Of a stretch of DNA of 64,000 nucleotides, positions 7,601 through 50,686 are shown in pieces. Every line of letters starts with the position of its first letter. Within the stretch, counting starts at the first letter, position 1. The notes under the pieces were generated by a model. That model was not told the DNA's origin. It made no database searches and saw only the letters and a program-made list of their open reading frames with translations. A program made the translations under genes and the position numbers. The stretch lies in contig CAJINV010000009.1 in NCBI GenBank assembly GCA_905178155.1, positions 2,147,373-2,211,372 on the forward strand, read 5' to 3'. The stretch comes from Amoebophrya sp. A120 (lineage: Eukaryota > Protista > Dinoflagellata).

Positions 7601-10600
7601 TTTCGCAAACTCCGGACTTTTCGAAATTTCCGGAATTTCCGGAACCCGGAAAATCGATTTTTCGGCAGTCCCGGAAAGTCCAAGCAACGCGCGGACTTCC
7701 GGAAAACTTGCTCCTCTGGATTTTCAGGAAGTTGGAAAATCGATTTTGGCAAACAGCCGGACAGCCACCTGCCTTACCCACATAGCAGGCCCGCGCCACC
7801 TCTTTTGCCCGCACCACCACTGACGCGGACATCGCACAAGGAGCGGTCCAACAAAATCGATTTTGCACGCCTCGGGTGATTGAACCCGCAGACGATTCTG
7901 CGAGCCTGAAATAACTAAAATCCCCGACTCTGCGCCCCATCAAGCGCCCAGCGGCTGTCGAGGACTGAGCCGCGGCACCCACCGAGGGCTGTCTGTTTAC
8001 AAAATCGATTTTGCGACCCCCGCGCCAGCCGAGAGCCTGTTCCTGGCGCCTCTACGGAGCTCAGAACACGCAGACGGGGCCCATGCCGCTCCCGCGGCTT
8101 TTCAGAACTTGGGCCCGGATGTAAGTCACAAGCTCGGGCGTTTTTCATTGCTTTCTACGCTGGGCCAACGCGATGAATGTGCGGAACTTCATCGGGGCGC
8201 AAGTTCTGGAATTCGCGATCATCCCTAAGCCTGTAGCGTGCGAGCGAAACATCGATCGATCCAAGGCGGGCAGAGGCCCGTCCTCTGCGACTTCGCCCCA
8301 CGCAATCAATTTTGCAGCTTTTGCCGGATTTTCCGGCTTTTGTGTTGGTAAAATCGATTTTGCGACCACGCGCGGACTGTGTGGCCCCGCCCGAGGATAG
8401 GGCATCTTCGAAAAGCGTGCCCGAAGGGTGCGCACAAAATCGAATCTGTCCGCGGGTACTCACAAAATCGATTTTGTGAGCACCGCCCGCCGGGCGGAAC
8501 ATGACAACCCGGCGCCCCCAACCCGGCTGCGGGAATCTTTCTGGCAGCCCGGACGCTCCAGGGTGGGGCCTAACGCCTCAGGACACCGGCAAAAACTGCC
8601 GGGAGACCGAGTTGGCGCATTCTCGAGCTTCGAGAACGCGGGCAACCGACTTCGTTTCGCGCTACTTTGCTTCGCTTGTGGACGTTAGCAGCCGCGGCAC
8701 AAAGTCGATTTTTTGCGGCGTGCCTGGATTTTTTGCGGATTTTTTTCCGATTTTCTTAACATTTTTGAAGTCGGTCCAAATCAGTACTAATCTACGTACA
8801 CGGCGTGCAGATTCACGCCGACTTTATTCTTCAGTAAATTCGTCTTTGTTTGCGCAACAGCAGGCTGTACAGGTGTCGTGATTCCTGCGTCTGAAAAATT
8901 TTCTGCTTTGCCGGTGCTCATCTTTGTGGTGACGGCGCCATCGTCGAATGAACTTGAAGGAGTGCCACCACCACGTGCTGCTGATGAAGAGGAACTCGAT
9001 GAGATGGCAAGTGTTGATGTCGCGGACCATGCAGCTGGCGTGGAAACACCTCCAGATCTACTCTGCGGTGGCGACACTGACTCTTTCGTCGTGCGGGTAC
9101 TACCCGGCCCACCAGATGCAGTGCAGTACCCGCCACCCCTCAAGGGGTCATGAGATCGCATCGTACTCGTGGTGCCAAATTCATCTTGTTCGGCCGCTTG
9201 CGCGGTGGTTGTGTCGGAGTGCTCGTGGTCTTTTCCTGTCCTCTGACCCTCGGTAGTTCGTTTCGCGACTTGTTCATCAACACTTCTATTCTCGATGCTC
9301 AGAACTAGGTCGTGCACATGCCCCGCTTGTCCCTGCGTCATCGCAACATCTTCTTCAAGCGCCGATATCACAGGAAAAAGTGTTAACGTTAACGGTTTTC
9401 ATAGATTACAAAAATGCATGACAAATTTTGCCTAGTATGCATGATATACATGACAAATTTTGGCACGTTTTGGGATGCGTTTCTGCATCACAAATTCCGT
9501 TAACGTTAACACTTTTTCCTGTGATAGCCGAGGAGTTCTCCTCAAGCTCATTGCCACTCATCGTACCACCTCCGCTCTCCATTGACAGAAAGCGCGAAGA
9601 TGAGGACGAACCCGCACCACGTGGCGTCGCAGTCGCAGTAGAGCCGGTGACAACAGAGGACCCAGTTGAGGCGTCCGAGTGCTTGCGCCCGTACTTCGCC
9701 TGCTCCTGTTGATCGGATTCGGACAGTGGGTTTTCGACGTCCTCTTCCCGATTCATGCCTCCTGAAGCACTTGGTGCCTCGTCTCCGCAGCTGCCCTCGG
9801 CCGCGACTTCCGTGTCGCTCCATGCGACGTCGCCGGAACGCATCGTCCTCGTTCTCGTCGTCCCGCCAGTCTGAAGAGCAGTCGTCGCGCTGCGAGAGTC
9901 CTCGCCTTCGGCATCGGAGGTCAGGTCCATCTGCGCGTCTCCTGCAGCCAAAGTTGTGCTCGCGGTTCTGTAGTCCTGAATGAAATTCCAGTTTTCCGAA
10001 ACCTCTAGGGAATAGTCGTAAGGCACCATGGTGGGCGCCCACCAATAGGGCAAACGCGTGTAAATCTTGTCTGGCTCATGGCGAAAACTCGCGGTATAGA
10101 TCACCGGCGGTGCTACTGGCGGTCGAGAATCTGCCGCGACTGTGCGTGGTCTAGTACTCGATCCCTTTTCTATTTTGTCCGATTTGTTCTTTACTTTCAT
10201 GTTCCCATCTGCATTTGCCATTGCGTGTTCGCTTGCTGACTGTGGCCGTGGATACTCGATGGTATCCCCTGGCGCCACAATCACGTTCCGTATCATTCGC
10301 GCGTCGGGGTTCTCTTCAAAATCGTCGCCCAAAGGAATAAACGCGAGCTGCGTCGTGTGCCGCGCCGGAAGATCAGAAGACTCGGTGCCTTCACCATCAG
10401 CGCGACGAGGACCTAGACCTTCAACTTCCCAAGCCTTGTCGCTGTCTATTGGAACGAAACTTTCAGGAATCAGCAAGGACATCAAAGAAGCTGCAGACGG
10501 CTTACTTGAGAAAGACACAAAATCTTCAATTTGTTCCCGTGCGAGAGTAGGCGTCCCCGTCTGTTGGCCTTGGTCTCCTTCGCCTTCCTCAACAATAATC

Positions 10601-11034
10601 AAATTTGTTGCCGTAGCCGTTGTGTCTCTCGAACTCCTCGATCTCGATGATTGTTCTTTTTCTTGTTGCCCACTAGCACTAGCAGACGACGCGGACGAGT
10701 TCGTGCAGCTGGACGTCGTAGGGTGGTCATGGGAGGCGCCCAGTTTCATCTTCGCGCGCTTTCGCAAGAGCGCCTGAGCGAGTACTATTCCGCCGCTGGT
10801 CGTCGTAATGCTGGGGTATAATGTTGACCAGAAAAGCGAACTGCAACAAATCGAGACTAGCGAGCTTCGTCCGGCGACGTGCCGCCCGGCCGCTTGAAGT
10901 CGCGAACGCGCGTTGGGTCTTGCCACGTGACACTGCGAAGGCACCATGGCACTACTTTTTGTGGGCTTTATACGGATAGGAGCAGGACGAGCGAACTTTT
11001 TGGTTTTTCTTTTATTTACTCCGGTGCCGGTCAT
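1676..11034 (-). CDS. Large (~2049 aa) low-complexity protein with two PAM2-like motifs; exons 11034-9527, 9360-8790, 5746-1676
   Basis: ORFs 9406..11034, 8787..9371 and the non-repeat part of 1676..6685 join in frame (ENSS|ALEEDV and LHAVYVD|DTTGILYIY) when the two TIR elements plus one TSD each are removed; total 6150 nt. PAM2-like motifs: QLNPKATSFTPG and EWNANATEFVPG. Confidence 0.7.
5871..6495. repeat. Minisatellite of near-palindromic ~21-bp units (TTGCACAAAATCGATTTTGCA) with variant units
   Basis: Tandem copies around the palindromic core AAAATCGATTTT, interspersed with AAAACCGAATCCCG and CCCGCAGACGCGGA variants. Explains the repetitive ORFs in all frames. Confidence 0.9.
7051..7494. 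repeat. Nested inverted-repeat cluster inside the 3-kb element
   Basis: A ~75-bp unit (CGGACTAAACCTGGTCCATACCATCGGCGGAGGCAGTTG...AAAAATCC) at 7074-7148 is inverted at 7420-7494, with a partial inverted copy at ~7253-7290. The palindrome TTACTATT(G/C)AATAGTA(A) occurs at ~7051, 7234 and 7297. Confidence 0.85.
9366..9526. mobile_element. 161-bp introner-like element (30-bp TIR, 5-bp TSD GCCGA); non-canonical intron
   Basis: Perfect TIR TATCACAGGAAAAAGTGTTAACGTTAACGG. GCCGA at 9361-9365 and 9527-9531. Removing 166 nt restores the host frame. Confidence 0.9.
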
Positions 11035-21882: not shown

Positions 21883-24800
21883 CTATCTATCGGGAACAGG
21901 GGAGGGACTTGGAGTGCTGCTGGTGGCGCTGCTACTGGGAGACATCTGGTCGAACAGGACATCTCCGGGAAGATCGTCCTCGTGATAGTACAAAACTGGG
22001 TTCTTTTCTTCCCCTTCCTGCCGCGATGTTGTCGAACTGGAAGCGCCTGCGCCAGCACCCGCACTCGTCTGCAGCTGAACTTGTCCTGGTCCACCTCGTA
22101 CTTGTCCCCCTATTCTCGTTGCGGGACCACTTTCACTTTCGTTGGAGTTTGTCCTCGCAGTTTCCTCACTTTGCTTACTCCCGCGCAGGTCGATAAACGC
22201 CGATGAACCCAAAGAAGTAGTGTTTGTCTCCCGATTTTCGTGTACTGCTTTTGCAGCACTTGCTCTGGTTGTTGAACCCGGGGAATTCCTTTTGCTGTTT
22301 TGCTTCGTCGCCGCCCCACCAGCACCCGATTTCATCGTCCGACCCGGCTTGTTTGAGTCCTTTTTGGCGAAGACCCCCGGGAGCGAGTCGTACTTTTGCT
22401 GCATCATGAGGCTCAAGTTCTCTGAACTGTCTTGATCTTTCACCATCGCTCGCATGCGTATCACATCCGCGCGCCCGTCTTCGGCCCGCGTGTCAAACAG
22501 GCGCGCACCCTCGTAATCGTTGTCCGAAAAGATGTTCACGTCCGCTGCAGCCGCACGCGAGTTTAGGGAAGATCTCGTCGTTTCTATGCTGTCAGTCGTC
22601 ATCCGCTGTTGCTCCTGCTCGCGCAAACGCATGAGCTCGGTGGCGGTGGACGCGCGTTCCAAGTCTGTAATATCACGGTCAACAACATATCGCGGGGACG
22701 CGTACGCAGCTGGTGAGTCGGCCCCGGTGCTTGTCCGGACCACCTCACCGTTAAACCGCTGGAAGAACGCGGGAACCCAGGCTCGTTTTGCCTTCTTTTT
22801 CTTCACTCCTTGTTTGCCGGCGCCGCCTGTGGAAGTGGTACCGCGGCCCTTCGACGTTGCTCCTGTGCTCCTGACGTCGTTGTTCATCTCTGCAGAAGAG
22901 GAAGACGAGTTAGCTGCGCCCTCTTCGTTGCTTTCTACCAAGAGGCCACTCCGCGTGCTATGCTTTGCAAAAGCGGCTCGATCCTCAGCGTCGTGGCTGC
23001 GAGTTTTGCTTTTGTTCGATCCATTTTGTGCCCCAGCACCGACGAGTCGTTTTGATCCGCTGAGATCGCCGTCACTCCCGTACTCGCTGTAATAACTGCT
23101 GTCGTCCTCGTCGCCAATGTTGGCGTCCTCCTCCGGCGGCAAAACCACCGGCCAGAAGGTCGGCTTGTGCGCGGCCTCCCAGAATTTTCCATTTACCGGG
23201 GCGCGCAGAAGCACGGCAGTGCGCTTCTTTGACACCGTGACCAGGCAGGGCAGGTCGATCTTCCAACCCTCCCCGTCCGCCTGCATGTACTGCGGCTGGC
23301 GCAGGTCCATCAAAAAGGCCTTACCCCGGGCCAGCGTCGCCATCCACGCGCCGCAAAGCGTTGCCCGTGCCAGGCTGCACTGGTTCCGACAACCCAGCAC
23401 CTCGATGGTGCCGTCGTGCGGCCGCTGCTTACCCATGTCACCCGGGTACGGCCTCCGTCCCGCACCGTAAGAGTTGATATTCAAGAAAACCTGACGAAAG
23501 CGACGATATTTTCTTTGGAGCAATTCTTGATGATCATGATGTGGCTTGGTTCAAAGCTGCTAAGATGTTGACGAGCCACGCAATCTTTTCTTTTACTTTT
23601 TATCAAAATCATAAAAAATAAATCGCTTTTTAATAGATACCATAGTTCTGAGCAGTCCACTATGTTGTCCGGACTGGATCATTCGTCTTTTCAAACCAGC
23701 GTCCTCGAATTCCCCGCCGTAGCGAAGACGGTCGTGGTAGTAAAAGTCCATCCCGTCGGCCAAACTCGGCGGACAGCACTTCATGAAACCCTTGCAGCCC
23801 CCGCACCCGTACCACATCTTACCCAGCCCGCTACTGAAGGTGCACTTCCCGAAGGCTGTCTGTCGCGCATCCTCAACGAATACGGTGGTGTCGGCGTCCG
23901 CGCCAAAGGAAAAATAATTTTGAAACGTCGACTGGAAAATTTCGCCGTCGTTCGCAGCGTGGGCGTCCAGAAGCCTGTTTTTTTCATTATGATTGCAACA
24001 CGATCTTTGCATGGATTGGAAGACTTGCAATGAAAATCTGCAGTTCACTACTCCCAAAAAGTCGTATCATTTTTAGATGAGACATGACGGCGCTCGTCAG
24101 CTGCGCCTAATTAAAGCGAACGTGAAGGTAGAAGTGTAAAAATGAGAACTATGCAATCCAATTCATTGATGGTTGCGGTTGGCTCATCAATGAATCACAA
24201 TCAATAAGTTTGCAATTTATTCTTGTTTTTTGTTCACAGCAACAAAAGCAATCACGTTACCTCGCCATGTTGTCCTTTATTCTTTCGGTTTTCTTCTTCG
24301 CGTATTTTGTGTCGTGGTGGAAGTTGCTGATGCCTTGACTCTGGTCCGCGATGTCGTCTTCCTCGGTGACGTAGTTGCATTTCTTTAGGGCGGCGTAGAC
24401 CCGCTCCCGGTGCGCCGGGTCCTGCACCTTTTGCGGGTGACTGCCCAGCGTCCGGAGCTTGTGGTCCTCGGGTAACTTCTTTTTCGGGAGCAACGTGAGC
24501 TCCCACTGATCGAGAATGGTCAGCTCCGCGTCCTCCACCATCTTCAGGTACTGCAGCGCCCGCGCGCTGCTAAAGTAGAAGGTGGACCCCCAGCCGAGCG
24601 AGCGGGCCAGGTCGTTGCCCGTTCCCAGCGGCAGCAGCGCAACCGGGGGCTGGAACCGCAGCAGCTTCTGCGCAAGCATGTCCCCGAGCACGCCGAGGAT
24701 CCAGCTCGCAGTCCCGTCCCCGCCGCAAACGAGCAGCCGGGCCACGGACTGCATGTCGCACACCTGGTCTTCAATGAACTGCCGGGGATTCTGGCTCGAC

Positions 24801-26302
24801 AAATCGCACACGTTTTCCTCGCCCAGCTCCGGAATCAGCCGGTCGATGATGCGTGCGCCCATGTTCCCGCCGGACGTCCGGTTCACAAACGCAAAAATGC
24901 GGCTGCGCCCGTTGTAGAGCATCAGGAATTGCGCTTTGTTGTTCTTCCCGCGGAACACCTTCTTCACGGGGCTCAAAGAAGCGTTCTCGCCCCCGATCGC
25001 CCGCGCCGACACGGTCCGTTCAAAGTGTGGGCGCGGTCCTCTTCCATGCTGTCCAGCAACGCCGGTGGAGCGTTGTGACTTGTCAAAACTGGACGGCCCA
25101 CCAGTCTCACTGCCCTCGTTGTCGCGGAGAGGGGAACTTCCTCGTCCTTCTGCAGAAAGATCTGCTTGTTTCAACGGGTCCGAGTTTGAACCATTGTTCG
25201 TTGTCGACCACTTGTCTTCACCTCTTCTATTTTCCGAATTTCGACCTTCTGCTCCACTGCTAGTGGACCACGAGTGCGCGCTCCTTTTGACGGGGCCGCT
25301 CGGTGGCGAGAGCGCCAAGCCGGCACCATTCAGAAAGGCCTCCAGGGACATCAGACCACCGTCCTCGCAGGAGTTGTCTGCTGGACTCGGATCTTCATCC
25401 TCGTAGTCGGTCTCTGCACCAGCAGCAGTTTCCTCTTCCTGCTCCTCGAGGGCGTGGTCCGCAGCTTGTTGCGCTTCTGCGCTTTTGTAGCTATTCCGGG
25501 GCGGAAGCCGGTTATCGTTTTCTCCGATACGGTGTTGGTCGTCTTCCTCTTCTCGTAATATCACAGGCGCGCTTTGACCTTTTCCAGCAGGAACAAGAAT
25601 TCTACTTGCATTTATTGCAGCTGCTCCGGCAGCGCTGTTTTTGTCGTCTTGATGTGATGGGGAATGAGCATGAGGTAAATAAGGCGTGTCTAGTACTTGA
25701 CGCGAAAACGAATCAGCACCGCTTTGTCTTTGACTTTCCCTCGGGGGGCCTGCATGAGAACACAAGCTGCTCCGAGACGACGACAACAAGGCCGGTACTG
25801 CCGAGCTGGTGCTTTCATCGCCCCCATCGCTCGCTGTGGTGGTGGTCGATGAAGACGAGGATGCGCTGCTGGGCGTGCCGCCGCCCCGACCCACCCCGGG
25901 GCGTCTTGTTTCCGCTCGGTCGACTGCGGTTGGGAGATTGTGGAGCGCCGCGGCGGCCAAAGTAGGGTGAAGACGTCGCGATTGTGCGGCTGCACCGAAG
26001 CCATGTCCTCTCTCGCTGTGGAGGTCCTGGCCGGCAGAATTGTCGCTCCTCCTTGGTCGCTCTGCAGGATCAAATGGCGAATCAAGCTGCACTGACGACT
26101 GTTTATTTTCGTTATCCGCTTCAGCATGATGTTGTGAACCCCTGTGTTTTCTCCTGCTCTTGATGTTCATCTTCATCTTCTGTTGCTGCCTGGCGATCTC
26201 CGCCTTCAGGTCCTGCACCGACAATCGCGGTGGTGCTCCAGCGCCGGCTGGCTCAGAAGTGATCACGTCGTCCGACGGCACCTCCATCGTGATTGGCGAC
26301 AT
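21883..26302 (-). CDS. DGK: Diacylglycerol kinase (catalytic and accessory domains); exons 26302-24261, 23974-23641, 23490-21883
   Basis: Catalytic motifs FVNRTSGG, LVCGGDGT and LPLGTGNDLARSLGWG; accessory motifs FQNYFSFGADA, FLNINSYGAG and HDGTIEVLG. GT-AG introns 23975-24260 and 23491-23640 keep the frame. Start codon uncertain. Confidence 0.9.
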
Positions 26303-28382
26303 GACGGTAACTTTCTCCGAAGGGGACGAAAGCCTGGTCAGCAGTACGCTGGGCAAGCTAGGAACAATTTCGACCCCAAAAAGCTCCGACCACGACCGGC
26401 AGTGCAAAAAGATACAGACATCATGGTCTTGCCGCGTTGGTACAACTGCTCATAATCGTGTGTAGTATAATATTTCGTTACAAAATATCACCGCTAAAAA
26501 AATAATGAACGGTCGTACATCTGCAGGTGCAAACAGAGGTACACCCTCAAGATCAAAAATGACAGAAGCTGGCCGCTGTGGGTAAATGACAATGAGGGAA
26601 GAAGATAAAAGATCGAGCCCGAGGGGCAGAAATGATCGAGCTTTATTACTCTGCGATGGAGGAAATTAATATGGGAACACGAACACCGCGATACAGATAC
26701 TACTTAATTTGTTTCAAATCCTACTCCTTGTTTGATGCGCGGGTGGGAGTGTAAAAATAATATCCATTGCGTTGCGAGAGCGAGAGGGAGAGCGTCACCG
26801 TCTTCAGCGTAACATACTATAAAAGTTGAAGTTCCTCATATCGAGCGTTGTGGTTTTAGTGCAGTAGAGTGATGATGTAGCCGCTCTTGGCGAAGGAGGG
26901 TCTCCTTAATGGGGCTCCACCTGGTTTTTGTTGTATGCATGATGATACATAGACAGAGCTAGAGGTGCTGGATTTTCAGATCTAGAAAAGGAATAAATTT
27001 GCTGAACATCTAAGCGGTCGTGTGACAAACGCTCGCGCATTCCAGCAACTCGGACCGACTAGCTTTGGCTTTGCGTAGCTGGAGGCGGTAAAGTACATTT
27101 TCATTTACATGATTAGTGCAGCTGTTGTTCGTATGCAGATGTTCATGCTGTCATTGCGAATCATGAGTCGTCGTCGTGGCTTTAAACTTTATTTATCGCG
27201 GTAACTACAATAGTCACGGGACGAGGTGGTGTCGCTTTCCTCGTCTTCCATGTTGATTGTTTGTAGTAAATGGCGCTAAATTGACTGCATGAACGAGAAC
27301 CGAGTGTCAAACTATCGCTCAAAAAACCGATGTTTTTCATCTAGTAATTTACTTCTGCTATTGAACGTTGCAACTTCACTCAAAACCGATTTTTTGGTTC
27401 CCTCACTCACCGACTCATACCTTCATCGTGTTACCCAGTGGGTCAGGACGAAAACAAACACAAAAAGCGGATGTCAACGTACGAAGTGTGAAAGTCTCCA
27501 TTCAACGTAAGTACTGAACAGACGCACCCACTAGTAGACGCGTGCAACTTCTTCGTTCGCGCGGTTTAGGTTTAGCTATAGCTACAAGGCAACTTTCATC
27601 AAATCACCAACCAGAATAGACTGACAGGGGGTTCTACGTCTTTTTATCTGTATTCGTAGCAAGATGATGACGTTGCAACGTTAGTCTGGATAAAGAACAT
27701 AACAACCCGCCTGTGTGACGATGCGAAAACAGACCACAGAAAGAAGGATCGAAATTCAAAATCTATGTTTGCAAAATTTCCCTTACAAACGAAGCCAACA
27801 ATCATTCAAAAAATATAAGCTGTATTCTCTAGAGGAGGCCACTTTTACTTTTTTGTCTTTGATTTGTAGCAAACGAAGAGAGTGATAAAAGAGTCTAAAG
27901 CGATCTCATCCGGTTCTGTATCACCGGAGAAGCGAAAGCAATAGGCTAAACGTAAACACGAACATACCAAAGAGCAAAAGCTAAAAAGACGATCAAAATG
28001 GTCTTTAAGTTTATTTTCTATGCTCCTCATTCTGCACAACGAAGCATCATACCGCAACAAATCAATGCAAGTGCAACCAACAATATTAGGCGTATCTTTG
28101 CTGGACTGAAAAAACGTCATCCGCCCCCGAAGCAACCAGAGCAGTGCGACGAATTGCAACTACATTCAAATACAAATTGAAATTGATCATTTCTGCAAAA
28201 AGAAAATAAAACAAAAGTTATGATGTAGTTCATGATCATGATATGAGGTTCAGGTTGCTCATGCTGGTATCGCGAGGAAGAGTTGGTAGCTATCGCTCCA
28301 TATGCAACTATAATGTTAGAACCGAAAGCGAAAAGCGAAACCCTAGCCCAAGCCAGTTCTTGACGACAGTATTCGACACATT

Positions 28383-31300
28383 TCAGTTCTTTCCCGTCGG
28401 CGTCGCAGGCTTCACAGTGTCTGGACTCGAGGGCTTCGGCTGCTCCGGCTCATCCACTAAATCCGCAAGAATCTTCCCGAGTGAGAGCCCAAAGGTGTAG
28501 ATGTCTTTGCTTTTCCAGGCGTCAAAGGAAGACTCCATGTTCTTCAAGACGTCATCTCCTTGGGCGTACAGGTGCGCACCTGCAGGAAAAACATAGAACA
28601 AGTGCAATAAGTTAGATTTTTTTTTTGTAATTTATTGCGCCCGACGTCTTCTGCCTCAGCAACAGCTGAAGTGGAACTCGATGACTCTAGAAAATAGCAA
28701 TGGAGCTTCTACATGTAGTCAAAACTAAAGCTCCAGCTCGGTGATGTCATGTGCTGGTGCTGCGGCTGCCCCGGACCCTCGAAACAAAATAGCAAACTTT
28801 AACTTAGATATACGTTATACAGGAACAGGAACGAATTTCATGCTTGATGAACGGCACGTTGTAAAACAAAACAAAAAATCAAAAGTACTCAGCTTTTGCG
28901 CGATTTCTTTCGGGTCACGTCGATCATCTGCCAGCCACTGCAAGCTTTTTTCGATCTGCGTGGTCTCCTGCTCTGATTTCTGTAGCAAATAGTACAAATG
29001 CGGCAAGTTTTGCAGCGACTTTCCCAGCTTCTCCAAGCCCTGGCCGAGCAGCGTTACGTTCCTCCAGCTGATCGCTCGCGCGATGACCACCACTGCGTTG
29101 ATATGGATGTGTCAGGTTTGAAATCGTCAAAGTTGAAATAGAAATAGTTTGTCATGCATAAAATGGATACCAGTTAGACCTACAGTTTGTAGTCGGCGCA
29201 TGGCAAATTTTCCCGGTCCTGGAAGCGAGTCTGTCACGCGGTTTAGGGCAAAGAGCTGCCTTCTGTCATGCTAGTTAGCAGTCCAACTTTTGACCCTTAC
29301 CAGGACTATAATCTGCCTCCCTTGGGTCCTCTGCAATAGAGTCACTCTTTGACTTTGTATCGCATTTTATGCATTGCAAATTATTTCAACTTTGACGATT
29401 TCAAACCTGACGCTTCCATAGTTGAACAAGTCCTGCGTTTCGGTGTTGGTGTCCACGAAAAACTCATCCGTGGTGTGGAACCCCATGCCCTCCAGTAGAC
29501 CCTTGATCAGTTGCGCGCGTTCCTGCGGGGAGGGCTTCGACGGAGAGAAAAGAAGGAGCTGCTGCAGATCGTGGTTGGGGTCTGACCGGTCGTGCTTTTT
29601 CTCCAGCACAAGCTGTAGTGGTTTTTTGGCGTATTACAAATTTTCACCGACAAGCACTACTCGCAGTGATAGTCAGAACGTTATTCAAAAAGTCGCCAAC
29701 GTGCGTCGGAGTGCAAAGTCTAGGTTTGATGTCAAGGACTACCATGAAGATGTCTTCATGCTAGCTGAACCTGAGAGTTGTCAAGAACATTTTTCGTTTT
29801 TCGTTATAATGCTCTACGCAAAAATGGTCATGATCCAAAAGAGGATAAAACAGGTCCAACGGGGGAACGTCGTACTACTTACCTTAACAATCGCCCCCAG
29901 CTCCTTGCCACATTCGAAGTAGTTTTTCGCCCGGAACGCTTGGAATGCCGATTTCCAATCCTCTGCGATCTCACCGAAATTGCGGAACAACCGCTCGGCC
30001 GTCCTAGTAGGGAACATCATTGGGTTCTTCAAAACGTCGCGAATGGTCTGCTCCTCCTGCTTTAACTCGCCAAGCGTGGCCGGCACTTTCTCGAACACCT
30101 GCCCCAGTAGGGCCAGCATGTCGCCCATTTGGTCTAAAAACCCCAAAGGATTTCCCTGCCCGAACGCTTGCTCAGCTTGCTGAAAATGTTGCTTCGCCTT
30201 CTTCAGCGTCTCCGCCTCCAGCTCGATCTCCTTCACGGTCTCTTCCGCGATGTCCAGGCCGGACCCCTCGACGAAACCCCGGAGCAGCTGTTGCAAGTCG
30301 GTTTTAGCAAAACCCAGCTCCTCCTTCACCTTCTCCTTGATTCGCTGCCCGATGGACTCCTTTTCGTCGTTTCTCTTCTGCTGCTCCGGAGCAGCTTGTT
30401 GTTCCTGCTGTACTAGGTCGCAATAGCCGTCCTTGCAACTACTCTTGCCCTCGTTCATCCTCATGAAGGTTTCTACGATGTCCTTGTCAGACACAGAGGA
30501 CTGGTAGGGCTTCTTCGCGACGGGTGCCTTCCGCTCCGGCATTTTTGTGGTGGAAGATGCATCGCTATAATTGACTTGTTCGGACGAGGTGGAGGTCGGG
30601 GTGCTGGTGGTCGCCTTGTAGTTAGAGATTCCGCCAGAACTTCTACCCGTTGGATCGGGATCGGTTTCATCGTCTGTGGCGGCACTCATGGCCGAGCTCG
30701 ACCCCGAGGAGTTGCTGCCGGGTGTGGAGGTACCGCCAGCAAGTGCTGACGAGCTAGCACTCGCCAGAGACGCCGATGTAGTCGCGCTTGTAGACGGCGT
30801 TGGTGGTCCTGGTGCGGTAGCGGCTTGAGTACTCGACGAGGATTGCTTGGCTACTCCCTTTGTTCGTGCCGTTGACGGGCTGAAGCTGTCTACGCCACCC
30901 AGAACGTAATCCTGAGCTCCAGTATCCATCGCAGCTGCTGAGGAGTAGGAAGTAACGGCGCCAAAGTGCGCGTCCAGCCACGGGCCGACATTGGTCGATT
31001 TGCCGCGGTAGCTGCTCAGAAAATCCTGTTCCTGTGCAGCATGATTCGACGAGCTGCTGGTGGTGCCGCCGGAAGAAGATGAAGATGAACCAGGCAGCTC
31101 GCTCTTCTCGTCTTTCTGTTTCTTGGCCTTGTATCGCGCGACCGCTTCCGGGTCTTCCTTGCTCTGCGGGTACGCCACTTTGCAGCCGTCCTCGCCCCTG
31201 TCTGAACCAACCAGGTCTTCTGCGGGCGAAGAGGCTCCGGTTTCCATTGGAGAAGCAGACGCAGCGTCTCTCTCCATAAAGTTCTTGGAGTCCGTCCCTG

Positions 31301-33537
31301 TGCGACGCAGGTACTGGCCAACCAGCCTGCGAAGCGATCTTCCCAAACGCGAGCGCACCGACGGTCTCTTCTTGTTCAGGGTGGAAAGATTACTTTGACT
31401 TTCTTCTTGATCGCCCGGCTCGTCGTCTTTCTTTTCCCCTGCTCTGCTCTGGTCGTCCCCAGCTTGTGCCATTCGTGTAGCTATCGCCCTAGATCCGTAG
31501 TGCAGCGCGCGACGGCGCTGGTTCCGCCTTGCCATTCGCTGTTCGGTCAGACCACCGAGAACGAATGCACAAACAGCAGGTGCGAGACGGACACTAATGT
31601 TGCTGGTAAAAGACTGCCCCTCTTGTTGCACGGGTCGACAAACCTCGCCGCCCAACTCCGGCGCGGGACTACGAAGTACTTTTGCATCTTCACCCGCACC
31701 AGTGAGCTGCGCCCCATTTTTCTGCCGATTTTGCTTCATGCGCAGAAGGAAGGCGGAGTTGTGGGGTCCCCCTGGCAGATCGTGGGCTGCGCAGCACTGA
31801 TCGTCTTCCGCCTCGTCAACCAATTGCTGCGTTGGCGCGGCTGATGTTGAAAAGGCTTCCGCTTTTGAACCAGCTTCGTCCCTGGAGCCTAAGAGTAGCT
31901 GTCCCTGCTGCGAGATCTGCGTCTTGACATTGTCGACCAACCGATTGCATTCTTCACGCACAGTTTTCCCCGCGTGATTGGCCAGTTCTGGAAGGGCGCT
32001 GCGGAGCTTCTGCATGTCGAATACGTCCCGGAGTAGGCCTTCTTTCCGGGGCACAACCATACCCGCGACGCACAGGCCACAGACAGCTGTAGCACCGATA
32101 ACCCGAGCTGCACTGCCTGAAATAGAGATGAGCAGCTAAGTCATTGAATAGTTAGTACTACGGATAAACTGGTTCTGGTGCCTTGTTCAGTATGCAAAAT
32201 CAACACGACAAGAAATAAGTGATAAAAAAATAAGAATTAGGATTGCTGGTAGTGTATCTGTAGATACCTTTGGTCCGTCGCGAACCAAAGCGCCCGGGCC
32301 GGCGTGTCGCCAGTGCGCCTGAAGGCTTTTTGCTCCCCCCAGAGGAAGCACTGCTACTCCGGCGCGCCAAAGGAGTGCTACCGCGACCTTGTTTGCCAGC
32401 GTGCTTCACGACGGCAGCGTACCGCAAACCACGTCCACCCATCGACGCCGGGAAAAGCTTCGACAGAGGCCAGCAGCGAAATTGCTGTTGGCCCCCACGA
32501 GCTCCGTATTTGCCAGCAGCGTGACTCGGAAAGCACTTGCTTCTCCGCCCGCCGTCCTGCAGGGGAGAGCAGTTGGAGTCTGTCGTGGTGGACGAAAAGT
32601 GCAAGCTAACCGGCCACCTGGGTGCGGCGTTGGCCGCCGCCCACTCCAGCTCTTCCCGGTCGAGCGCAGACAGGTTGCTGTTGCTGCTGCTGCCCGCTGT
32701 GGTGGATGATACTTCCAATGGGGTTCCTGTAATGGATGTCCCGTTGCGCGGCTCCTGCCCCACAGTAGCAACAGCGGGTGAAAACAACACTCCCCTTGCG
32801 GCTCTTCCATTTTTGGCACTCATTTCCATCTGGTCGAGGAGTAAAGAGGGGCGCTCGGAATGTTGCCGACTGAACACCAGAGTGGGGGCGCCAGTATAGT
32901 TGCCGCCTCCGCCGCCGCTGCGGGTGGAAAGCTTTTTCTTGAACGGAGAGGCACCGGATGCAGAGCCCGCTGAGCGCGAACTGCAGGACTTCTGCAAATC
33001 GTCGAAACTCTCCACGTCAGCATCCTCTTCTGTTTCTTCTACGCCCGGGGCCCCCGCACCAGCAGAAGCAATTCTGCCGCCCACGAGCGGCAGCTGCTGG
33101 AGCCGCTGAGGACAAGTTTTGCGCGTCCGTCGCGGACAAGACTTGACCCCACCAGAGCACGTTTTCAGAAACGAGCCCCGACCTTCACCTCGCGCGGCGG
33201 AAGTAGAGGCACTGGTCGCACCTGCTTTGTTGTGCTGCACTTTTTCCCGCAAGTCGTGAAGCAAGTTTCTCTGTTGCAGGTTGGCCGCCATGCTGGAAAG
33301 CGCCCCCGGGCCGGACGCGCTGCCGCCGGCTGCTGCAGCGCCACTGTGCATCATCTGTTCCAGATCATCCAAATCCGAGTCATCGAAGACACTACGGTCG
33401 CCGTGGGCCCGACACTGCCCAGCGCCACAGGAGCTGGTACGGGACAACGCCGTCTGTGGCGAGTGTGCGCCCTCCAGAGGCACAGGCGAGCTTGCCGCAA
33501 GAACGGCGGCGACAAGGTAAAGCCTCATGTTGGACAC
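28383..33537 (-). CDS. Putative secreted or membrane protein (~1366 aa) with two C-terminal helical repeats; exons 33537-32268, 32116-29883, 29612-29421, 29096-28889, 28579-28383
   Basis: Signal-peptide-like MRLYLVAAVLAASS. GT-AG introns 32117-32267, 29613-29882 and 28580-28888, plus the TIR element at 29102-29420, give one 4101-nt frame. Confidence 0.7.
29102..29420. mobile_element. 319-bp introner-like element (39-bp TIR, 5-bp TSD GTTGA); non-canonical intron
   Basis: TIR TATGGATGTGTCAGGTTTGAAATCGTCAAAGTTGAAATA with 2 mismatches. GTTGA at 29097-29101 and 29421-29425. Removal joins QDLFN|AVVVIAR. Confidence 0.9.
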
Positions 33538-33945: not shown

Positions 33946-36045
33946 TCAGCTGTGAATTTCTACTTTTCTTTCACAGTACCGCCAGTTGATCCGTGCAGGA
34001 TTAAACCTGGGGTTACAGAGCGGATGGTGAACGTAACCGGGCTCATGCATACCTGACCAAGACCGCGGCAAGTGATCCACATGTCTCATCGCGGCAAATT
34101 CCATGACGTACACCTCCCGAGGCAGCCGCTCCTTTACGTCGCTTTCCTCGAGATTGACGCCGTGGAGCGCGTTTGTATCAAAAATAAAACCCCCGAAAGC
34201 TTTGCCATCCATGTACTCAATCCTCGAGAAGTCCGGGTCCTGGTATCGTCCCCCGGTGTACAACTCAGTTGTAGTCCCGTTTTGAAAAAAATTATGTTCC
34301 TCTTCGGACTCTTGCGAAGTAGATTCTCTTCCCGTTATTTCCGCTTCATCTGGTTGTGACCTCTCCTCCTGGTCGCCCTGTTGATCATATTCTTCGTTGA
34401 AGAACGCAGTCCTAACAGCAGCGTCCTGCAGCTTGTTCGCCGCTCGAACGGGGCCGTGAAAGTAGTCGGTGGGTGAGAGCCAGTGCGTGTGGTGTGTGTT
34501 CCGCATAATCCGGGTCGGAAATCCTTTTCTGGGATCTGCCGGCACGTCGGTGAGGTACAGGTACACTTTCAGCCGCGTGCCACACCCGTCGTGATGCCAT
34601 AGTGCGTTGTCATACTGGTGCTTACGAAGGTCGCCCTTCAGCTTGAAATACCCTACGCCGCCGGTAAATGACACATCCGACGAACGCAAATACCCGTGAA
34701 CCAGCTTCCGTAGCAACGAGTGCCGGTCGGCCAGAAGTGGTAAAAGCCACGCCCGATCATTCGGCCTGACGTGTTTCGTGGCTTTTGCCAAAGAGTTAAT
34801 ATGGTTATCGTCTCCCTGCTCCTGCTGGTCAAGCGGCTTGACGAAAGACGGCACTCGCACGAATCCATCGCGACGGAAGTCTTCGATGAGCTGCCGCTCG
34901 CGGGCGGACAATATCCAGGAAAAAACACCCATCCCCATCCATTTTTTGCATGGCAAATAGTGGACTTTATGCATGTTTTGCATGACAAATTGGATGGGGA
35001 TGGGTGTTTTTTCCTGGATAGACAAAGGTGGCGGTGGACCAACATCAGCAGTTCCCACGGGGCTATCAACTGTAAAAATGTCTGGGTCTGGAAGAATGCG
35101 TGACTTGTCATGCAGCTTTTCCATGACCCATGAAGTCTGGAATGCAGGACCTAGCATGACAGATTCTGCGCGATCTCTCTCATGCCTATCCTGCATGAGA
35201 AACTCCCTCCCGACTTGGTCAAAACTGGACGACTTTTGGTAATCATGCAACACAGATTTTTGCATGCTTCAGATTTAGCATTACAAGTTGCATTCTTCCA
35301 GACCCAGACATTTTTACATTTGATAGGGGCACTCCTGTCCCCAATCCCAACGCCGAAACCAGGTGGGTAGATCCACGGTGAAAACAAACCGCGCCACCGC
35401 CGTTTGAAAATATCTTCGCTGCAAGCGCCGGAGATCTCGGTCCCCGCGTATTCGATTCGCAAGTGCCGTGAAATTCGTTTCCGAGCTTGCGGCGTCCGTA
35501 AATTGTTGATGTCCCGGTATGATCCGTCGGCGGACGACGTTTGTCAAATCGAAGCCAAAGCGGTGCTGCACCAACCCGTCGCGTGCCAGCGCGCGCAAAC
35601 TGACTTGCAGGGCGTCTGCGGCTTTTGTTTTCCTGCCCTCCCGGGTAAAGAGTTTATTTGCGTCTGCAGCTGCATCGCCCCGTTCTTCGAGTGGATTATA
35701 CCAAGCCAGCAGGGCGTCTTCCTTCTTCTCTTCGTCCAGCCAAAATGCATCAATGAGCTCCTGTATCTTTTCGTCCGGGAGAAAGTTTTCGCCTCTCCAC
35801 TGAGGCTTCTCCTTGCGCAAAAAATGATACATATCCGGGTCGTACAACGTTTTGGCCTGGAGGTTCGCCAGAGGCCGTGTTGGCTCCCCCTCGGGAGTAC
35901 TAGAAGATCTAGATCTAGACGAAAGAGCTGCACGACCATAACCGTAGTACAGAAAAATTCCGAAACCGAAGGAAATGGGGGCGCGGCGCCGCTGAAAAAT
36001 CTGGATCTTTTTCCTCATGATCTTAAGGTTAAGTGCCTCCTCCAT
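33946..36045 (-). CDS. Fe(II)/2-oxoglutarate dioxygenase, PhyH-like fold, with N-terminal hydrophobic segment; exons 36045-35326, 35058-35021, 34906-33946
   Basis: IEDFRRDGFVRVP, WHHDG (HxD), LKVYLYLTDV and FIFDTNALHG (distal His) match the PhyH-family pattern. 573 codons after removing two TIR elements. Confidence 0.75.
34912..35020. mobile_element. 109-bp introner-like element (30-bp perfect TIR, 5-bp TSD GACAA)
   Basis: TATCCAGGAAAAAACACCCATCCCCATCCA and its exact reverse complement form the ends. GACAA at 34907-34911 and 35021-35025. Confidence 0.9.
35064..35325. mobile_element. 262-bp introner-like element (36-bp TIR, 5-bp TSD GGGGC)
   Basis: TIR TATCAA(C/A)TGTAAAAATGTCTGGGTCTGGAAGAATGC. 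GGGGC at 35059-35063 and 35326-35330. Removal joins GQECP|VGTADV and removes the in-frame stop. Confidence 0.9.
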
Positions 36046-36805
36046 TATCTGTGGTTACCATTTCCGTGAGTGTCGCCACATCAAAATGCTCACTTACAAT
36101 GAAGCGCTGGTGCAAGGATCACGGTGATAGATCAGCATCAGATTCAGATCCATTAAGTAGCTTCAGCTTCTGCTTGCTGCCAAGAGAGATGAGGCCTTGT
36201 TCACAGTTGGCGCCGACACAGCTTGCTTGTAGTTCCGGCTGCGATAGGGCGCCAATTAAGAGAACCAAGGCATCTAGCTAGCATGGAGGATGCCTTCCAG
36301 AATTATGCTCCCGAGACTCGCCAACTGTAGCTCTGTCATGCAGTTCATGTACAAGTATACTTTTCGTTTTCTTTTGTGTCGCTGTTGTTTCGTCTTCGTT
36401 TTTTCGCAAAATTCTGACAGGAAGTTGTAACAATGTCACAGTCAGTCATCATCTTTCGCAACAGAAACGAGCAGCGTAGTGAAGTGCAGCAATAGCAGGA
36501 CGTGCAAAAAATTCAACATCGACTTCAACATAAACTGCGGCAAGAAGTACACCTGCGTCTTTATCGCTGAAAACCTAAAAAGGTGATCCGCGTGAAGGAC
36601 GATGGGAAACGCGGCACTGAATAGTAAAAGATAAAGTGATGAGGAATTCATATTCGATGAACTACTACTAGAAGAGGCAATAATCTTATCAAAGAAGCTG
36701 CAAGAACATCAGCTCAAATACCCTCATACATCAGTTGCATTTGCAACAGTTCAAGAGATTAAAAATCACCATGTTGAACAAACCGTCGAGGCTAAGCCTT
36801 GATTT

Positions 36806-46361: not shown

Positions 46362-47636
46362 TTACATGATCATCTGATTCGGATTCCACGTATTCTGGTT
46401 TGAATCGACCGCATTGTGGCACTTGTTCCAAGTTTCCTCCGGACGCGCGGTTAGGTCGGTCACGAAAGCGTTACACTGGCACCCGTTCCAAAGCGCTCCC
46501 CCAATCGCGCATTCCGGCGTGTTGACGTTGTTCGGATCATGGCAATTGTTCACTTTCTCGTGGCAGGTCTGCCAGTCCCACGCCCCGCTGCCTTGTGGTA
46601 CCGGTGCCGGTGCAGCAATCGGCGCCACTGCCGGTGCGGCCGCCTGCGGAACCGGCGCAGCCACGGGCGAAGGAGCTGCTGGTGCAGCCAGCGGAGCCGG
46701 TTGGTAGTTCGTCGGTGCACCCGGAGGGGCAGCGGCCGTAATCCCAACGGGTTGCACCGTGTCCCAATCGTGCTCGTGCAGGTCGACACTAGTGTGGCAC
46801 TGGTTCCAGGCCTCCTCCGCCGGCCCCACCGCTTCCGGAGAAGGCACGAAGGTGGTGCACTTACACCCATTCCAGAGTGGTCCCCTGAGCATGCATGGCG
46901 CAGTGTTGACTCTGCTGCTTTCATGACACTTGTTCACTGGGTCGTGGCATTGGGCCCAAGGCAAGGTGCTTTGTGGTGCAGCTGCCGGGGCCGGTTGTAG
47001 TGCCGGTGCAGGGAACGGAACAGGTGCCACTGGGGCGCGGGCCACAGCCGGTCCAGCCGGTGCCGGTGGGCCAATTGGTGCGGCTGGAGCGATCGGTGTT
47101 GTTGTTGTAGCTGTGCTTGGCTGCCGCAGTGGCGACGACCCCTCGCCATCCTCTTCGTACTCCCCCTCGCCATCCTCTTCGTACTCCCCCCCGCCGTCCT
47201 CCTCGTCGTCCTCCTCGTCCTCGTCGTCGTCGTCCTCCTCGTCGTCGTCGCGCTTTTTCCCGACCTTGTTCTTCTCCTTGTCCATGTCCAGCTGCACTTG
47301 TAATACAGTGCTTCCACCAGCACGATCATTTTGATCTTCCGGCACATCTTCAACCGAGGACTGCTCATTCTTTACGACGACCGCACGATCTTGCTGCAGC
47401 AGCTCCTGTTGAAGATGCTGTCCCCCACCGGGGCGATTGTTCCCGGCACGCGACGCAGGTTCTCCTGAAGAGAGATCAATACGCAGCTTCGCGACCCGAA
47501 CGGCACCGCCACGGTACAGGTGCTGCTTCTCGTGCGCTGCAATTCGGGAAGCTTGCAGCAGAAGCAGCTGCGTCTCCGAAGAAACCGTGGCGAGCGCAAA
47601 TACGGCGCAGCTCTTCATCTTCGTGATGTGCGGCAT
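46362..47636 (-). CDS. Putative secreted protein with an acidic tract, Pro/Ala linkers and two copies of a 6-Cys/Trp domain
   Basis: Signal-like MKSCAVFALATVSS, a D/E tract with GEYEEDG twice, and two modules W-x2-CH-x2-VN-x-CH...VNT-x2-C...LWNGC-x-C-x2-FV...EE-x-WN-x-CH-x2-VD. Confidence 0.8.
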   Translation of the reverse strand: MPHITKMKSCAVFALATVSSETQLLLLQASRIAAHEKQHLYRGGAVRVAKLRIDLSSGEPASRAGNNRPGGGQHLQQELLQQDRAVVVKNEQSSVEDVPEDQNDRAGGSTVLQVQLDMDKEKNKVGKKRDDDEEDDDDEDEEDDEEDGGGEYEEDGEGEYEEDGEGSSPLRQPSTATTTTPIAPAAPIGPPAPAGPAVARAPVAPVPFPAPALQPAPAAAPQSTLPWAQCHDPVNKCHESSRVNTAPCMLRGPLWNGCKCTTFVPSPEAVGPAEEAWNQCHTSVDLHEHDWDTVQPVGITAAAPPGAPTNYQPAPLAAPAAPSPVAAPVPQAAAPAVAPIAAPAPVPQGSGAWDWQTCHEKVNNCHDPNNVNTPECAIGGALWNGCQCNAFVTDLTARPEETWNKCHNAVDSNQNTWNPNQMIM

Positions 47637-48948
47637 GCTTTTTGTCAGGACCAGGAAGGTGTGTGAGAGGATAGAAATGTTTTTTTTTCTAAGTGAACAA
47701 AGAAAGTGCAGCTCGTCCTGTTGATTGGATTATTTCAAACACTGGTGGCACACTACTTCAAGGAAAATGGCTTCCCATCGCGCACGACGAAGTTTGACCT
47801 GCTTGACCGCGTTCAGAATACCGCTTATTTAGTACGAAGTAGACGACGACTACGACGACGACCCTTGTAAAAATCGACGTTCTTTCATTTTTCCGGTTCA
47901 AGTTCTCGTTCTGAAATGACGGTCTCGTATTTTATTTTCGACCAAGAAGGCAAAACGACACGACACCAAACTACGGCGGCGAGGTACTTTGATATTACGC
48001 CTCGAAAGTACTCTACCTAGGTGCGTAACTTCTGTCTTTGTAGTTTACGAAGGGCGACGAAGTACAGTTTCCGATCCGACGACACGAGTACCAGAGGTTC
48101 TACTATTTCAAGGTGCTCTGGCCGCGACTAAAGAGGAAATCAAACTGCAGATCATTGAGGACGAAGATCAACCACGTAGCAACAACTGGTTCTTGATGTT
48201 TGAGAGTCCTACAAAAGATGAGAACGAATGCAATGACTCTGCACAGGGGCGGCCACGAAGACGGAGATCGATGCGAAATGTCTCCCACACCCGCGGTTTT
48301 TTTTTCGTGGTCTTATCTACTTTTAGTGTAGCACAATGGTTATCGTTTATACAACTGTGTGTGTCATTCGAGATTCAGCCAATATCTGCTTCATCATATT
48401 GTACATTTTCATACAAGAGATAACCATGATGACGCGACTACAAGAGCTGCGAAGAGAAGCAAATAACATACCAAAAATTTTCTACAGGTGAAAGAACAAA
48501 TGTTGCCGTGGTGACTATTGTGAGTATTGTTGACCTTTTTTCCCGTGAACAAAAAAGCGATAATAGGTATATCAAAACTGATCAGATCCTGGACGTCCTA
48601 GGAGAAAGGATGTTGACCTAGGACAAGGATTGAAGATGGTGTAATTGATGGCTAAACTTCAACTTGTTCATTCTTACGCGCACAAGAGTTGATGTTGAAA
48701 CGGTAACATTAGAAAGAGAGCTGATGTTTGTAATCGATAAAAACGCAACAAAAAGCGGTTTCTTCCGCGCTAATAACTTCCCAGCTTTTTGCGACGATGA
48801 ACAGAATGTTGATTGATGTACCACTATTGGGTGAGGATCGAAGCTGAGTGATGTATAAAAAACTGCACCGGGACGAAGACATCAAACAGCTCTAAACATA
48901 AAAGCAAAAACAACTGCCCAAAAACCGAGCCTAAGCCTGCTTTTGATT

Positions 48949-50686
48949 TTACTCCTTCGGCGGAATTCTCTTGGTCTTGTGGCGACGGAGCCGTAAAGAT
49001 TCGTCGTGCGGTTCCCCCAAAACCGACCGAATGTGGTGCAGCTTGACGTCGCCTCCCTGGCTGTAGGGCAGCGCGAGGTCGTTGGCTGTTGTGAAAGAAA
49101 GTAGAACAGATTAAATTCATGCTCGATACAAAAAAGATGCTTATTTTGCCTTAGCTTTACTTCTACAGGTAATCTGGCTGACAAAGCGAAGATAGAGGAA
49201 ACTCATGACAAAATTACTGAGATGACCAGGTCCAGGTGCACATCACACACGACTTATTATACCGACAGCGTGGCCGTAGTGCCAGTTTTTCTTCCCGAGC
49301 ATTTCGGTGACGCAGCCCTCGGACCGGTTGTGCTGGATGCGGCTGCCCAGGTTTTCGAGGTAGCCGTCGTGCTCGCGCAGCGTTGCCTCGTACTTCATGT
49401 TGTTGCGGGACTTGTGACCGTGCTTCCTGTCCTGCACCAGGTGCTCCCACGTGTTGGTACTTGACCCCTCGCAGCCGGGCCAGTACCGAAAGTTCAGTAT
49501 GCAATGCAAAAGCATCGCACTAGTATAAATTGCATTACAAATTTTCCCAAGAACAAAAATGCAACTTGTCATGCTATTTCAGGTAGAAAGTTGGATTTGT
49601 CATGCACCGCTGCAATTACTACGAGTACGATACTTTTGCAATGCATATTCAGGTCCATGTCGCGGATCGAGGCGATCGGCAGCGCCGACTGGCTGCGGTC
49701 GTATAGCCGTTCCTGCGTTATGGGAGTGTCAGAATCGAAATCGACAAAGTCGGAAAATTTGTAATGCATAACACGTAGGGCACGCATGAGCTGTGTTGGG
49801 GACCAGGCAAATAAGACTGATTGAAAGCCTGCAGTATGCAATGTGCTGCCACAGTAGCACTACAGGCGGACTCTTCTTTGCCTAAACAGCATGACAAACT
49901 GGATTTAGGTACTGCCAAAATTTGTCATGCACCACTTGAAAACTGGGCTCCAACTGGTATCGATTTTATGCATCGCAAATTTTTCGATTTTGTCGATTTC
50001 GATCCTGACATTCCCATATGCGTCTTCGGGTTGGTAAACTTCTCTTCGTACTGCCCGTCCGCGAAGTTCGTTTTCGCCAGGTCGAAACTCTGGTGTGACT
50101 TCGAAAAGTACCTGGTGGTGTTGTGAGGTATTCGATAGTACAGAAGGAAAAATACGTTGCTGGACAATCTATAAGTAACTGTAGTACTAGTGTGCGAAGC
50201 TGCATACTAAAAACACATAACATTCAGAAATAGGCATATCAGGGATGTTTCTCGGGACATGATGGCCGCTCGCGCACTCATGTGCGGCGTTAAAAAAAAA
50301 TCATGAGTACGTGGTAGATACGTACCTCTTCCATTTCAAATCTGGCTTTCCTGCCTTGCCGCCCCGGAGGTTCAGTTGCCAATTTATTTCAGAATACCCA
50401 CCCCCGGAAACCCGCATCGTGGCAGCTGAAGATCATATTGTTGATAGTTGTAAGAGATGATAATCATGAAAATCAATGAATCTATCAGAACTCGCAACTG
50501 AACTTCCGCCTCAGAAAGTAAGTAAGTAGGTTTTTTCCGAGATGAAACAAAAAGCACTTGCAATTTAAGTTTAAGAGTCAAAACCTGCATATCGTGACGC
50601 AACTACAACATGTACATCGATAAGATACCATTCTGCAGCATGGGTCTGGTGTCTGCAAAGTTTCCGTATTTCTCATTGGCAAACAT
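48949..50686 (-). CDS. Hypothetical ~227-aa protein; exons 50686-50629, 50425-50326, 50111-50019, 49713-49648, 49492-49263, 49085-48949
   Basis: Three GT-AG introns (50426-50628, 50112-50325, 49086-49262) plus two TIR elements give a continuous 684-nt frame (MFANEKYGNFADTRPM...YSEINWQLNLRGG...KTKRIPPKE*). The 5' end is uncertain. Confidence 0.7.
49498..49647. mobile_element. 150-bp introner-like element (~37-bp imperfect TIR, 5-bp TSD TTCAG)
   Basis: TATGCAATGCAAAAGCATCGCACTAGTA versus reverse-complemented right end TATGCATTGCAAAAGTATCGTACTCGTA. TTCAG at 49493-49497 and 49648-49652. Removing 155 nt joins DMDLN|FRYWPG. Confidence 0.88.
49719..50018. mobile_element. 300-bp introner-like element (~53-bp TIR, 5-bp TSD TGCGT), homologous to 29102-29420
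   Basis: TIR TATGGGA(G/A)TGTCAG(A/G)ATCGAAATCGACAAA...ATGCATAA. TGCGT at 49714-49718 and 50019-50023. Removing 305 nt joins NPKT|QERLYD. Confidence 0.9.

Follow-up and report, generated by a model that had tools for sequence, protein, structure and literature searches.

We analysed a 64,000-nt stretch of the genome of the dinoflagellate Amoebophrya sp. A120 (assembly GCA_905178155.1, contig CAJINV010000009.1, positions 2,147,373 to 2,211,372 of the forward strand), referred to below as the window and numbered from its first letter. Long open reading frames (ORFs) of the window are nearly all minus-strand; of the 15 that were tested, 10 matched no Pfam family. Six short hairpin-ended insertions (E1 to E6) interrupt minus-strand reading frames. 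They are introner elements, and each carries, as an element-specific internal repeat, two to six copies (one mismatch allowed) of the motif GCAT(G/T)(A/G)CA(A/G)(A/G), which is common to elements with different terminal inverted repeats (TIRs).

The elements were located by scanning the whole window for TAT...ATA inverted-repeat pairs with no more than 2 mismatches in 14 nt. This yielded 16 pairs, six of which are flanked by a perfect 5-bp direct repeat outside their ends, as expected of a target-site duplication (TSD); no such pair was obtained in 20 shuffles. The other ten pairs, including those at 7055–7450 and 59364–60196, had no duplication and no exact motif copy. The six elements (none assigned a strand) and their motif copies (strand in brackets) are as follows.

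9366..9526: E1, 161-nt TIR element; TSD GCCGA; arms 30 nt, 100% complementary; motif at 9416(+), exact, and at 9448(+) and 9485(+), one mismatch.
29102..29420: E2, 319-nt TIR element of family A; TSD GTTGA; arms 39 nt, 95% complementary; motif at 29148(-), 29198(+), 29262(-) and 29371(+), exact, and at 29230(-), one mismatch.
34912..35020: E3, 109-nt TIR element; TSD GACAA; arms 34 nt, 97% complementary; motif at 34948(+) and 34980(+), 32 nt apart.
35064..35325: E4, 262-nt TIR element; TSD GGGGC; arms 37 nt, 97% complementary; motif at 35104(-), 35154(+) and 35278(+), exact, and at 35136(-), 35176(-) and 35193(+), one mismatch.
49498..49647: E6, 150-nt TIR element of family B; perfect TSD TTCAG; TAT..ATA pair with 1 mismatch in 14 nt; motif at 49532(+), 49565(-), 49596(-) and 49635(-), all exact, with gaps of 31, 33, 31 and 39 nt.
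49719..50018: E5, 300-nt TIR element of family A, in the opposite orientation to E2; TSD TGCGT; arms 53 nt, 89% complementary; motif at 49758(-), 49889(+) and 49921(-), exact, and at 49857(+) and 49970(+), one mismatch.

All six elements begin with TAT, followed by N7-AAA in E1, E3, E4 and E6 and by N7-TCA in E2 and E5. The latter two form one family (A) and can be aligned over their full length only when E5 is reverse-complemented, while the likeness of E1 and E3 is confined to the first ~13 nt. With TIRs, a TSD of fixed length, many copies and no coding capacity, the elements have the features of TIR DNA transposons that are not autonomous, or MITEs (miniature inverted-repeat transposable elements). 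Contigs from a DNA sequencing run cross from unique flanks into E3, E4, E6 and E5, and depth in that run was ~45 in unique bins against 286,517 and 36,124 in the two element-bearing bins; this excess indicates that the element families are highly repeated. Placement in that run is dominated by cross-joins between repeat copies.

Three of the elements are absent, to the base, from RNA-like contigs that come from four runs of a single sample. The contigs join 29096 to 29421 across E2 (324 nt skipped, joint ambiguous by 5 nt), 34906 to 35021 across E3 (114 nt skipped, ambiguous by exactly 5 nt) and 35058 to 35326 across E4 (267 nt skipped, ambiguous by exactly 5 nt), so that what is missing in each case is the element together with one copy of its duplication. 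That these contigs derive from RNA is a guess, made because the same contigs also skip two GT-AG introns and are unevenly covered; each of two raw RNA-seq runs labelled with that species placed only 2 reads on the window. All six host reading frames are on the minus strand, and deletion of the element together with a single 5-bp repeat copy reopened the frame through the junction in every case, giving 500 + 192 amino acids on either side for E1, 69 + 95 for E2, 254 + 321 for E3, 241 + 334 for E4, 61 + 106 for E5 and only 83 + 84 for E6. None of the 36 possible cuts (six per element, sense strand) would leave GT-AG, GC-AG or AT-AC ends, and the elements are thus not canonical spliceosomal introns, unlike the two neighbouring introns, which are GT-AG and served as comparators.

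29613..29882, minus strand: comparator GT-AG intron, 270 nt (RNA joint 29612 to 29883; CT..AC on the plus strand); motif 0 exact, 1 with one mismatch.
32116..32266, minus strand: comparator GT-AG intron, 151 nt (RNA joint 32115 to 32267; CT..AC on the plus strand); motif 0 exact, 0 with one mismatch.

The motif is strongly concentrated in the elements. Across the window we counted 18 exact matches, compared with 2.97 ± 1.96 expected from dinucleotide-preserving shuffles (n = 100), none of which reached 18, and 17 of the 18 fell within the six elements, which together occupy 1301 of 64,000 nt (2% of the window). The only exact copy elsewhere (36332..36341, minus strand), without a surrounding TIR or TSD, is within chance. 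An unguided k-mer count led to the same sequence: GCATGACA, CATGACAA and TGCATGAC were the only 8-mers common to all six elements, the first of them occurring 10 times inside elements and twice outside, and the informative core can be written T-GCAT-[G/T]-[A/G]-CAAA-TT (TGCATGACAAATT). With one mismatch there were 10 further copies in the elements and 67 outside. Among the latter, 40 were scattered (57.7 in shuffles, hence at or below chance) and 27 lay in a tandem array at 5863–6404, which consists of ~23 copies of a 21-nt unit, ATTGCACAAAATCGATTTTGC, inside a 1676-amino-acid open minus-strand frame and contributes copies of the GCATTGCACA and GCAATGCAAA types. Base composition does not account for the enrichment, since no exact copy was present in 66 non-element 200-nt bins with a G+C content of 0.45 or less (13.2 kb of AT-rich DNA) or in the two RNA-verified GT-AG introns (421 nt together; G+C 0.42 and 0.35), the elements themselves having a G+C content of 0.41.

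These counts bear directly on a preliminary description of the same DNA, made from sequence alone, which had proposed the motif as a link between the elements and had named an equal frequency in canonical introns and intergenic DNA as the outcome that would speak against it; the introns and bins above gave the opposite result. Its motif coordinates, twelve or more, were all correct to within 1–3 nt. Its claim of two or more copies per element holds with the exact pattern for five of the six; E1, with one exact and two one-mismatch copies, joins them once a single mismatch is allowed. The motif was also said often to abut the inner end of a TIR, and a by-eye reading of arms and positions agrees for about 9–10 of 12 ends. 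The assertion that the TIRs are otherwise unrelated was too broad. Arms do differ between most elements, but E2 and E5 are one family, E1 and E3 have a common start, four elements share the TAT-N7-AAA pattern and a motif copy forms the right terminus in family B. The associated suggestion that arms need only be self-complementary stands, in that arms differ between families while each pair remains complementary; covariation between arms among family members was weak and mixed.

Outermost motif copies lie 31–50 nt from the element ends, or 3 nt in family B, where the copy at 49635(-) stands so close to the right end of E6 that this terminus reads as TAT plus motif, as it does in four of five family B copies. 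Internal repeats of the end sequence occur in many transposons. The notion that every terminus is a degenerate copy of the motif was considered and proved true of family B only, and a fixed 'ruler' distance from motif to junction was ruled out by distances ranging from 31 to 50 nt. Family B ends are consistently asymmetric (E6; L056:510-653, L047:481-651, L047:750-898 and L090:196-358, the last four from the further loci described below), with TATCCTGTGCAAAAG at the left and TATGCATTGCAAAAG at the right in three of the four locus copies, and because the two ends differ, the first bases of the hairpin would be unpaired.

Within the elements the motif copies are regularly spaced. Allowing one mismatch, 9 of 20 gaps between neighbouring copies in the window elements measured 31–33 nt, compared with 0.8 expected, and none of 20,000 random placements reached nine; with exact copies only, the figure was 4 of 11 (p = 0.0004), and over all 16 elements, 20 of 51 against 2.1 expected. 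The ~32-nt spacing was equal for +/+, -/- and +/- pairs. Such a spacing corresponds to about three helical turns, as would suit proteins bound to one face of duplex DNA. The motif is asymmetric, and its 18 exact copies split evenly between the strands (9 plus, 9 minus), although all host genes are on the minus strand. Family A occurs in both orientations within minus-strand genes (E2 by RNA, E5 by reading frame alone). The E3 family has all its copies on a single strand, which in the window is the plus strand, antisense to the minus-strand gene; a second family member (L034:1-91) is reversed beside minus-strand coding sequence. The coding strand of L034 was taken from a codon-usage score trained on the window, which called four of four held-out window ORFs correctly; ORF length alone gave no gene strand in short loci. 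In predicted RNA folds the motif copies were mostly paired (68–96%), and no common structural context was found.

To look beyond the window, public metagenome contigs were scanned with a 17-mer form of the motif, which returned at least 120 loci. Among the matches listed, 112 loci had a single copy and no element with TAT ends and a duplication. The remaining eight, all in one record set, had 2–11 motif copies each and included five elements with perfect 5-bp duplications; their match to the window is confined to the elements, and we therefore regard them as other insertions of the same families. They also add two TIR types absent from the window, both motif-bearing. Taken together, perfect 5-bp duplications were seen in all six window elements and five further copies, and in none of 20 shuffles or 112 control loci. 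An unrelated repeat in other metagenomes (~11 loci among the matches listed: L014, L026, L027, L032, L038, L055, L064, L072, L073, L108 and L111) holds the same 17-mer once, ~22 nt from the repeat end, where contigs often break; this is probably a coincidence. Locus L035 contains a likely GT-AG intron on the minus strand (L035:338-457; splicing is predicted, and several GT..AG choices restore the frame), with two exact motif copies 32 nt apart and no TAT inverted repeat. On this example, the motif may also occur in canonical introns derived from elements.

Similarity between families, as seen by blastn, was limited to 12–19-nt matches centred on the motif, which on this comparison is the only sequence common across families. 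Conservation within families was measured on motif columns that had not been used for retrieval, and 27 of 40 were invariant in family A and 12 of 29 in family B. The corresponding numbers were 77 of 198 and 17 of 101 for other interior columns, and 53 of 80 and 30 of 50 for arm columns. Motif columns thus exceeded the rest of the interior (Fisher p = 0.0014 in family A and 0.0099 in family B), and on these alignments the conservation of the motif is similar to that of the arms.

Several other features of the window were recorded alongside the elements. The palindrome AAAATCGATTTT occurs 21 times (0 in shuffles), always within 5888–8475, a separate repeat-rich region of 2.6 kb with TTCCGGAA-type palindromes. 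At 7051–7511, long inverted repeats that begin with TAT (arms of 95 nt, 91% complementary, and of 73 nt, 89%) have neither a 5-bp duplication nor the motif. The same is true of a 27-nt inverted-repeat pair at 59355–60205 (93% complementary), which starts TATACAG and has 8-nt tandem repeats (CAATATGA) just inside both arms. At 47138 the DNA run has an insertion of 24 nt, which adds a further unit to a 24-nt coding tandem repeat, and three base differences nearby; strain or allele variation accounts for these. The two frames at 21886–23550 and 24260–26449 hold the parts of one diacylglycerol kinase, which suggests that more unannotated introns lie between them. No Rfam hit (rRNA or small nuclear RNA, snRNA) was obtained in the window, and a search for spliced-leader fragments gave one match with 2 mismatches, within chance.

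The elements themselves are already known, as their features match those of published A120 introner elements. The accessible text of Farhat et al. (2021; PMC7789003) describes the latter as transposon-like, with hairpin inverted repeats that begin with TAT, ~7 variable nucleotides and a run of A, with border direct repeats of 3–5 nt, no splice sites of the canonical kind, an average length of ~240 nt and high copy number, in a genome of co-oriented gene blocks in which most proteins have no known family. Our six elements share with these the TAT hairpin ends, the border repeats (a perfect 5-nt repeat in all six), the non-canonical ends and the copy number, and E2 and E5 depart from the published TAT-N7-AAA template. 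That text characterises introners by terminal inverted and direct repeats only, reports no family-specific inverted-repeat motif, and does not mention an internal motif shared across families or a 32-nt phasing (PMC7789003).

Most A120 introner families are classed as 'TIR DNA, Unknown' in the accessible parts of Gozashti et al. (2025; PMC12130899), and these resemble our elements in length (~106–320 bp), in being palindromic in some cases, in their duplications (2–5 bp, automatically detected) and in having mostly non-canonical ends. Those parts of the source give neither a superfamily nor a binding motif for the A120 families (PMC12130899). The same study reports integrase-like families flanked by TIRs. 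Further afield, the accessible text on non-conventional introns of euglenids (PMC11282704) describes non-canonical borders, inverted repeats that join the intron ends in RNA, duplication-like junction repeats and a suspected MITE origin. Borders, inverted repeats and duplications are thus shared with the elements studied here, but the lineage is different, the euglenid signature is CAG/CTG at +4–6 / -8 to -6, and that text describes no phased internal motif (PMC11282704). The motif string did not appear in the article or supplement text of Farhat et al., nor in those supplements of Gozashti et al. that are in text form, although a logo within a figure would escape such a search. A literature text search on the motif strings, and on 'introner' with 'subterminal', returned no relevant paper among the matches listed. 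As far as these texts extend, then, the cross-family internal motif, its 31–33-nt phasing, its conservation and its recurrence in eight further loci constitute a new feature of known elements.

The arrangement recalls the subterminal transposase-binding repeats of Ac/Ds and Hermes (hAT), En/Spm (CACTA), the P element with its internal site, and Foldback with its 31-bp subrepeats. Such repeats lie within both ends as several short copies of either orientation, are conserved while the rest of the element drifts, and act together with short terminal sequences. The elements of the window likewise have multiple conserved copies near both ends, which may be bound by a transposase in the same manner. 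They differ from the classical examples in TSD length (8, 3, 8 and 9 bp for hAT, CACTA, P element and Foldback, 5 bp here), in having no known cognate transposase and in that one motif spans families with different arms.

We tentatively favour the reading, to which we give slightly less than an even chance, that the motif copies are predicted, phased binding sites in double-stranded DNA for a shared mobilising protein. One such protein, a transposase or its DNA-binding partner, would recognise families with differing arms through the motif array; if it were a DDE-type enzyme making 5-bp staggered cuts, it would read the TAT ends together with the phased internal sites. Arm sequence would be free to vary provided that the two arms pair, and this pairing would serve hairpin-guided excision from RNA, making insertions tolerable, while the motif itself would serve transposition. 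A reader of duplex DNA is preferred because of the strand balance, the occurrence in both orientations and the lack of a common context in RNA folds. The preliminary description had suggested a binding site for a common transposase or excision/splicing factor; the specificity of the motif for the elements, its sharing across families, its phasing and its conservation bear this out at the level of observation, whereas the binding, and a choice between DNA and RNA in which the sequence evidence leans towards DNA, are inferred.

Several of our own results weigh against this reading. The distance from terminus to first motif is variable, and so is the way the copies face with respect to the ends: those of E2, E4 and E5 point outward, those of E6 inward, and those of E1 and E3 are direct. 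For transposase sites a symmetrical arrangement is usual. No transposase Pfam family was found among 15 long ORFs of the window, which thus offers no cognate autonomous element. The phasing is not universal, as the L058a/L102a and L058b families have gaps of 43–58 nt instead of 32, and the counts given above overstate the number of independent events, since copies within a family share their spacing by descent. The sample is also small, the six window elements being joined by about ten from loci for which the motif itself had been the query. Exact removal from RNA covers E2, E3 and E4, with the reopened reading frame as the evidence for E1, E5 and E6.

Some of the remaining evidence would fit an RNA-level role, in which the motif is a recognition site for a machinery (protein or guide RNA) that excises non-canonical introns and marks the hairpin as an intron in a lineage reported to have no U1 snRNA. 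The precise removal of E2, E3 and E4, with no GT-AG, GC-AG or AT-AC option in any of the six elements, is what such a machinery would produce; every minus-strand transcript of a window element contains at least one UUUG(U/C)CAUGC; E1 and its relative L035a are inserted the same way round with respect to their genes; and the accessible text of Farhat et al. reports neither U1 snRNA nor a transposase in A120 (PMC7789003). The transcript copies and the common orientation of E1 and L035a also count against a reader of duplex DNA, and the lack of a reported transposase counts against a mobilising protein. We nevertheless consider an RNA-level excision signal unlikely, because an asymmetric motif is divided 9:9 between the strands and a family with copies on a single strand, that of E3, is inserted in both orientations relative to minus-strand genes. 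Conservation in both orientations, identical spacing for same- and opposite-orientation pairs, the pairing of most copies in predicted folds of no common context, and the two phased copies in the likely GT-AG intron of L035 point the same way.

Quite unlikely, in our view, is a motif without present function, being the part that has lasted best of an element, or of a ~32-nt tandem repeat, ancestral to all families. Descent in place is plain for the copies within a family, and motif-like repeats do exist outside elements, in the 21-nt array with its 27 one-mismatch copies. Against such a remnant, the interior is otherwise unalignable between families while the motif is identical over 12–19 nt, motif columns are roughly as conserved as arms and more so than other interior sequence, and the centre-to-centre distance is constant among the several copies that each family holds in both orientations. 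It seems very improbable that the motif is a site in DNA for a host function, carried along without a part in mobilisation, such as one for a transcription, chromatin or silencing factor: the absence of strand bias and the helical phasing would suit any DNA-binding protein, but a regulatory word of the host should turn up in promoters or intergenic DNA too, and outside the elements, the tandem array aside, the motif does not exceed chance (1 exact copy and 40 with one mismatch, compared with 57.7 in shuffles).

A DNA-level site bound by a mobilising protein thus remains our preferred, if tentative, interpretation. A much wider version, in which one factor reads phased TGCATGACAAATT sites together with any self-complementary arms and both spreads and excises thousands of unrelated introner families, is decidedly improbable; if true, it would mean that a transposon-derived system has replaced splice-site recognition for most introns of a eukaryote without U1. 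For the question of how the tens of thousands of non-canonical introns of Amoebophrya spread and are removed, a short, phased motif common to families with differing arms provides a concrete bait for finding any binding protein and a basis for genome-wide tests. The motif could also improve intron annotation in such genomes.

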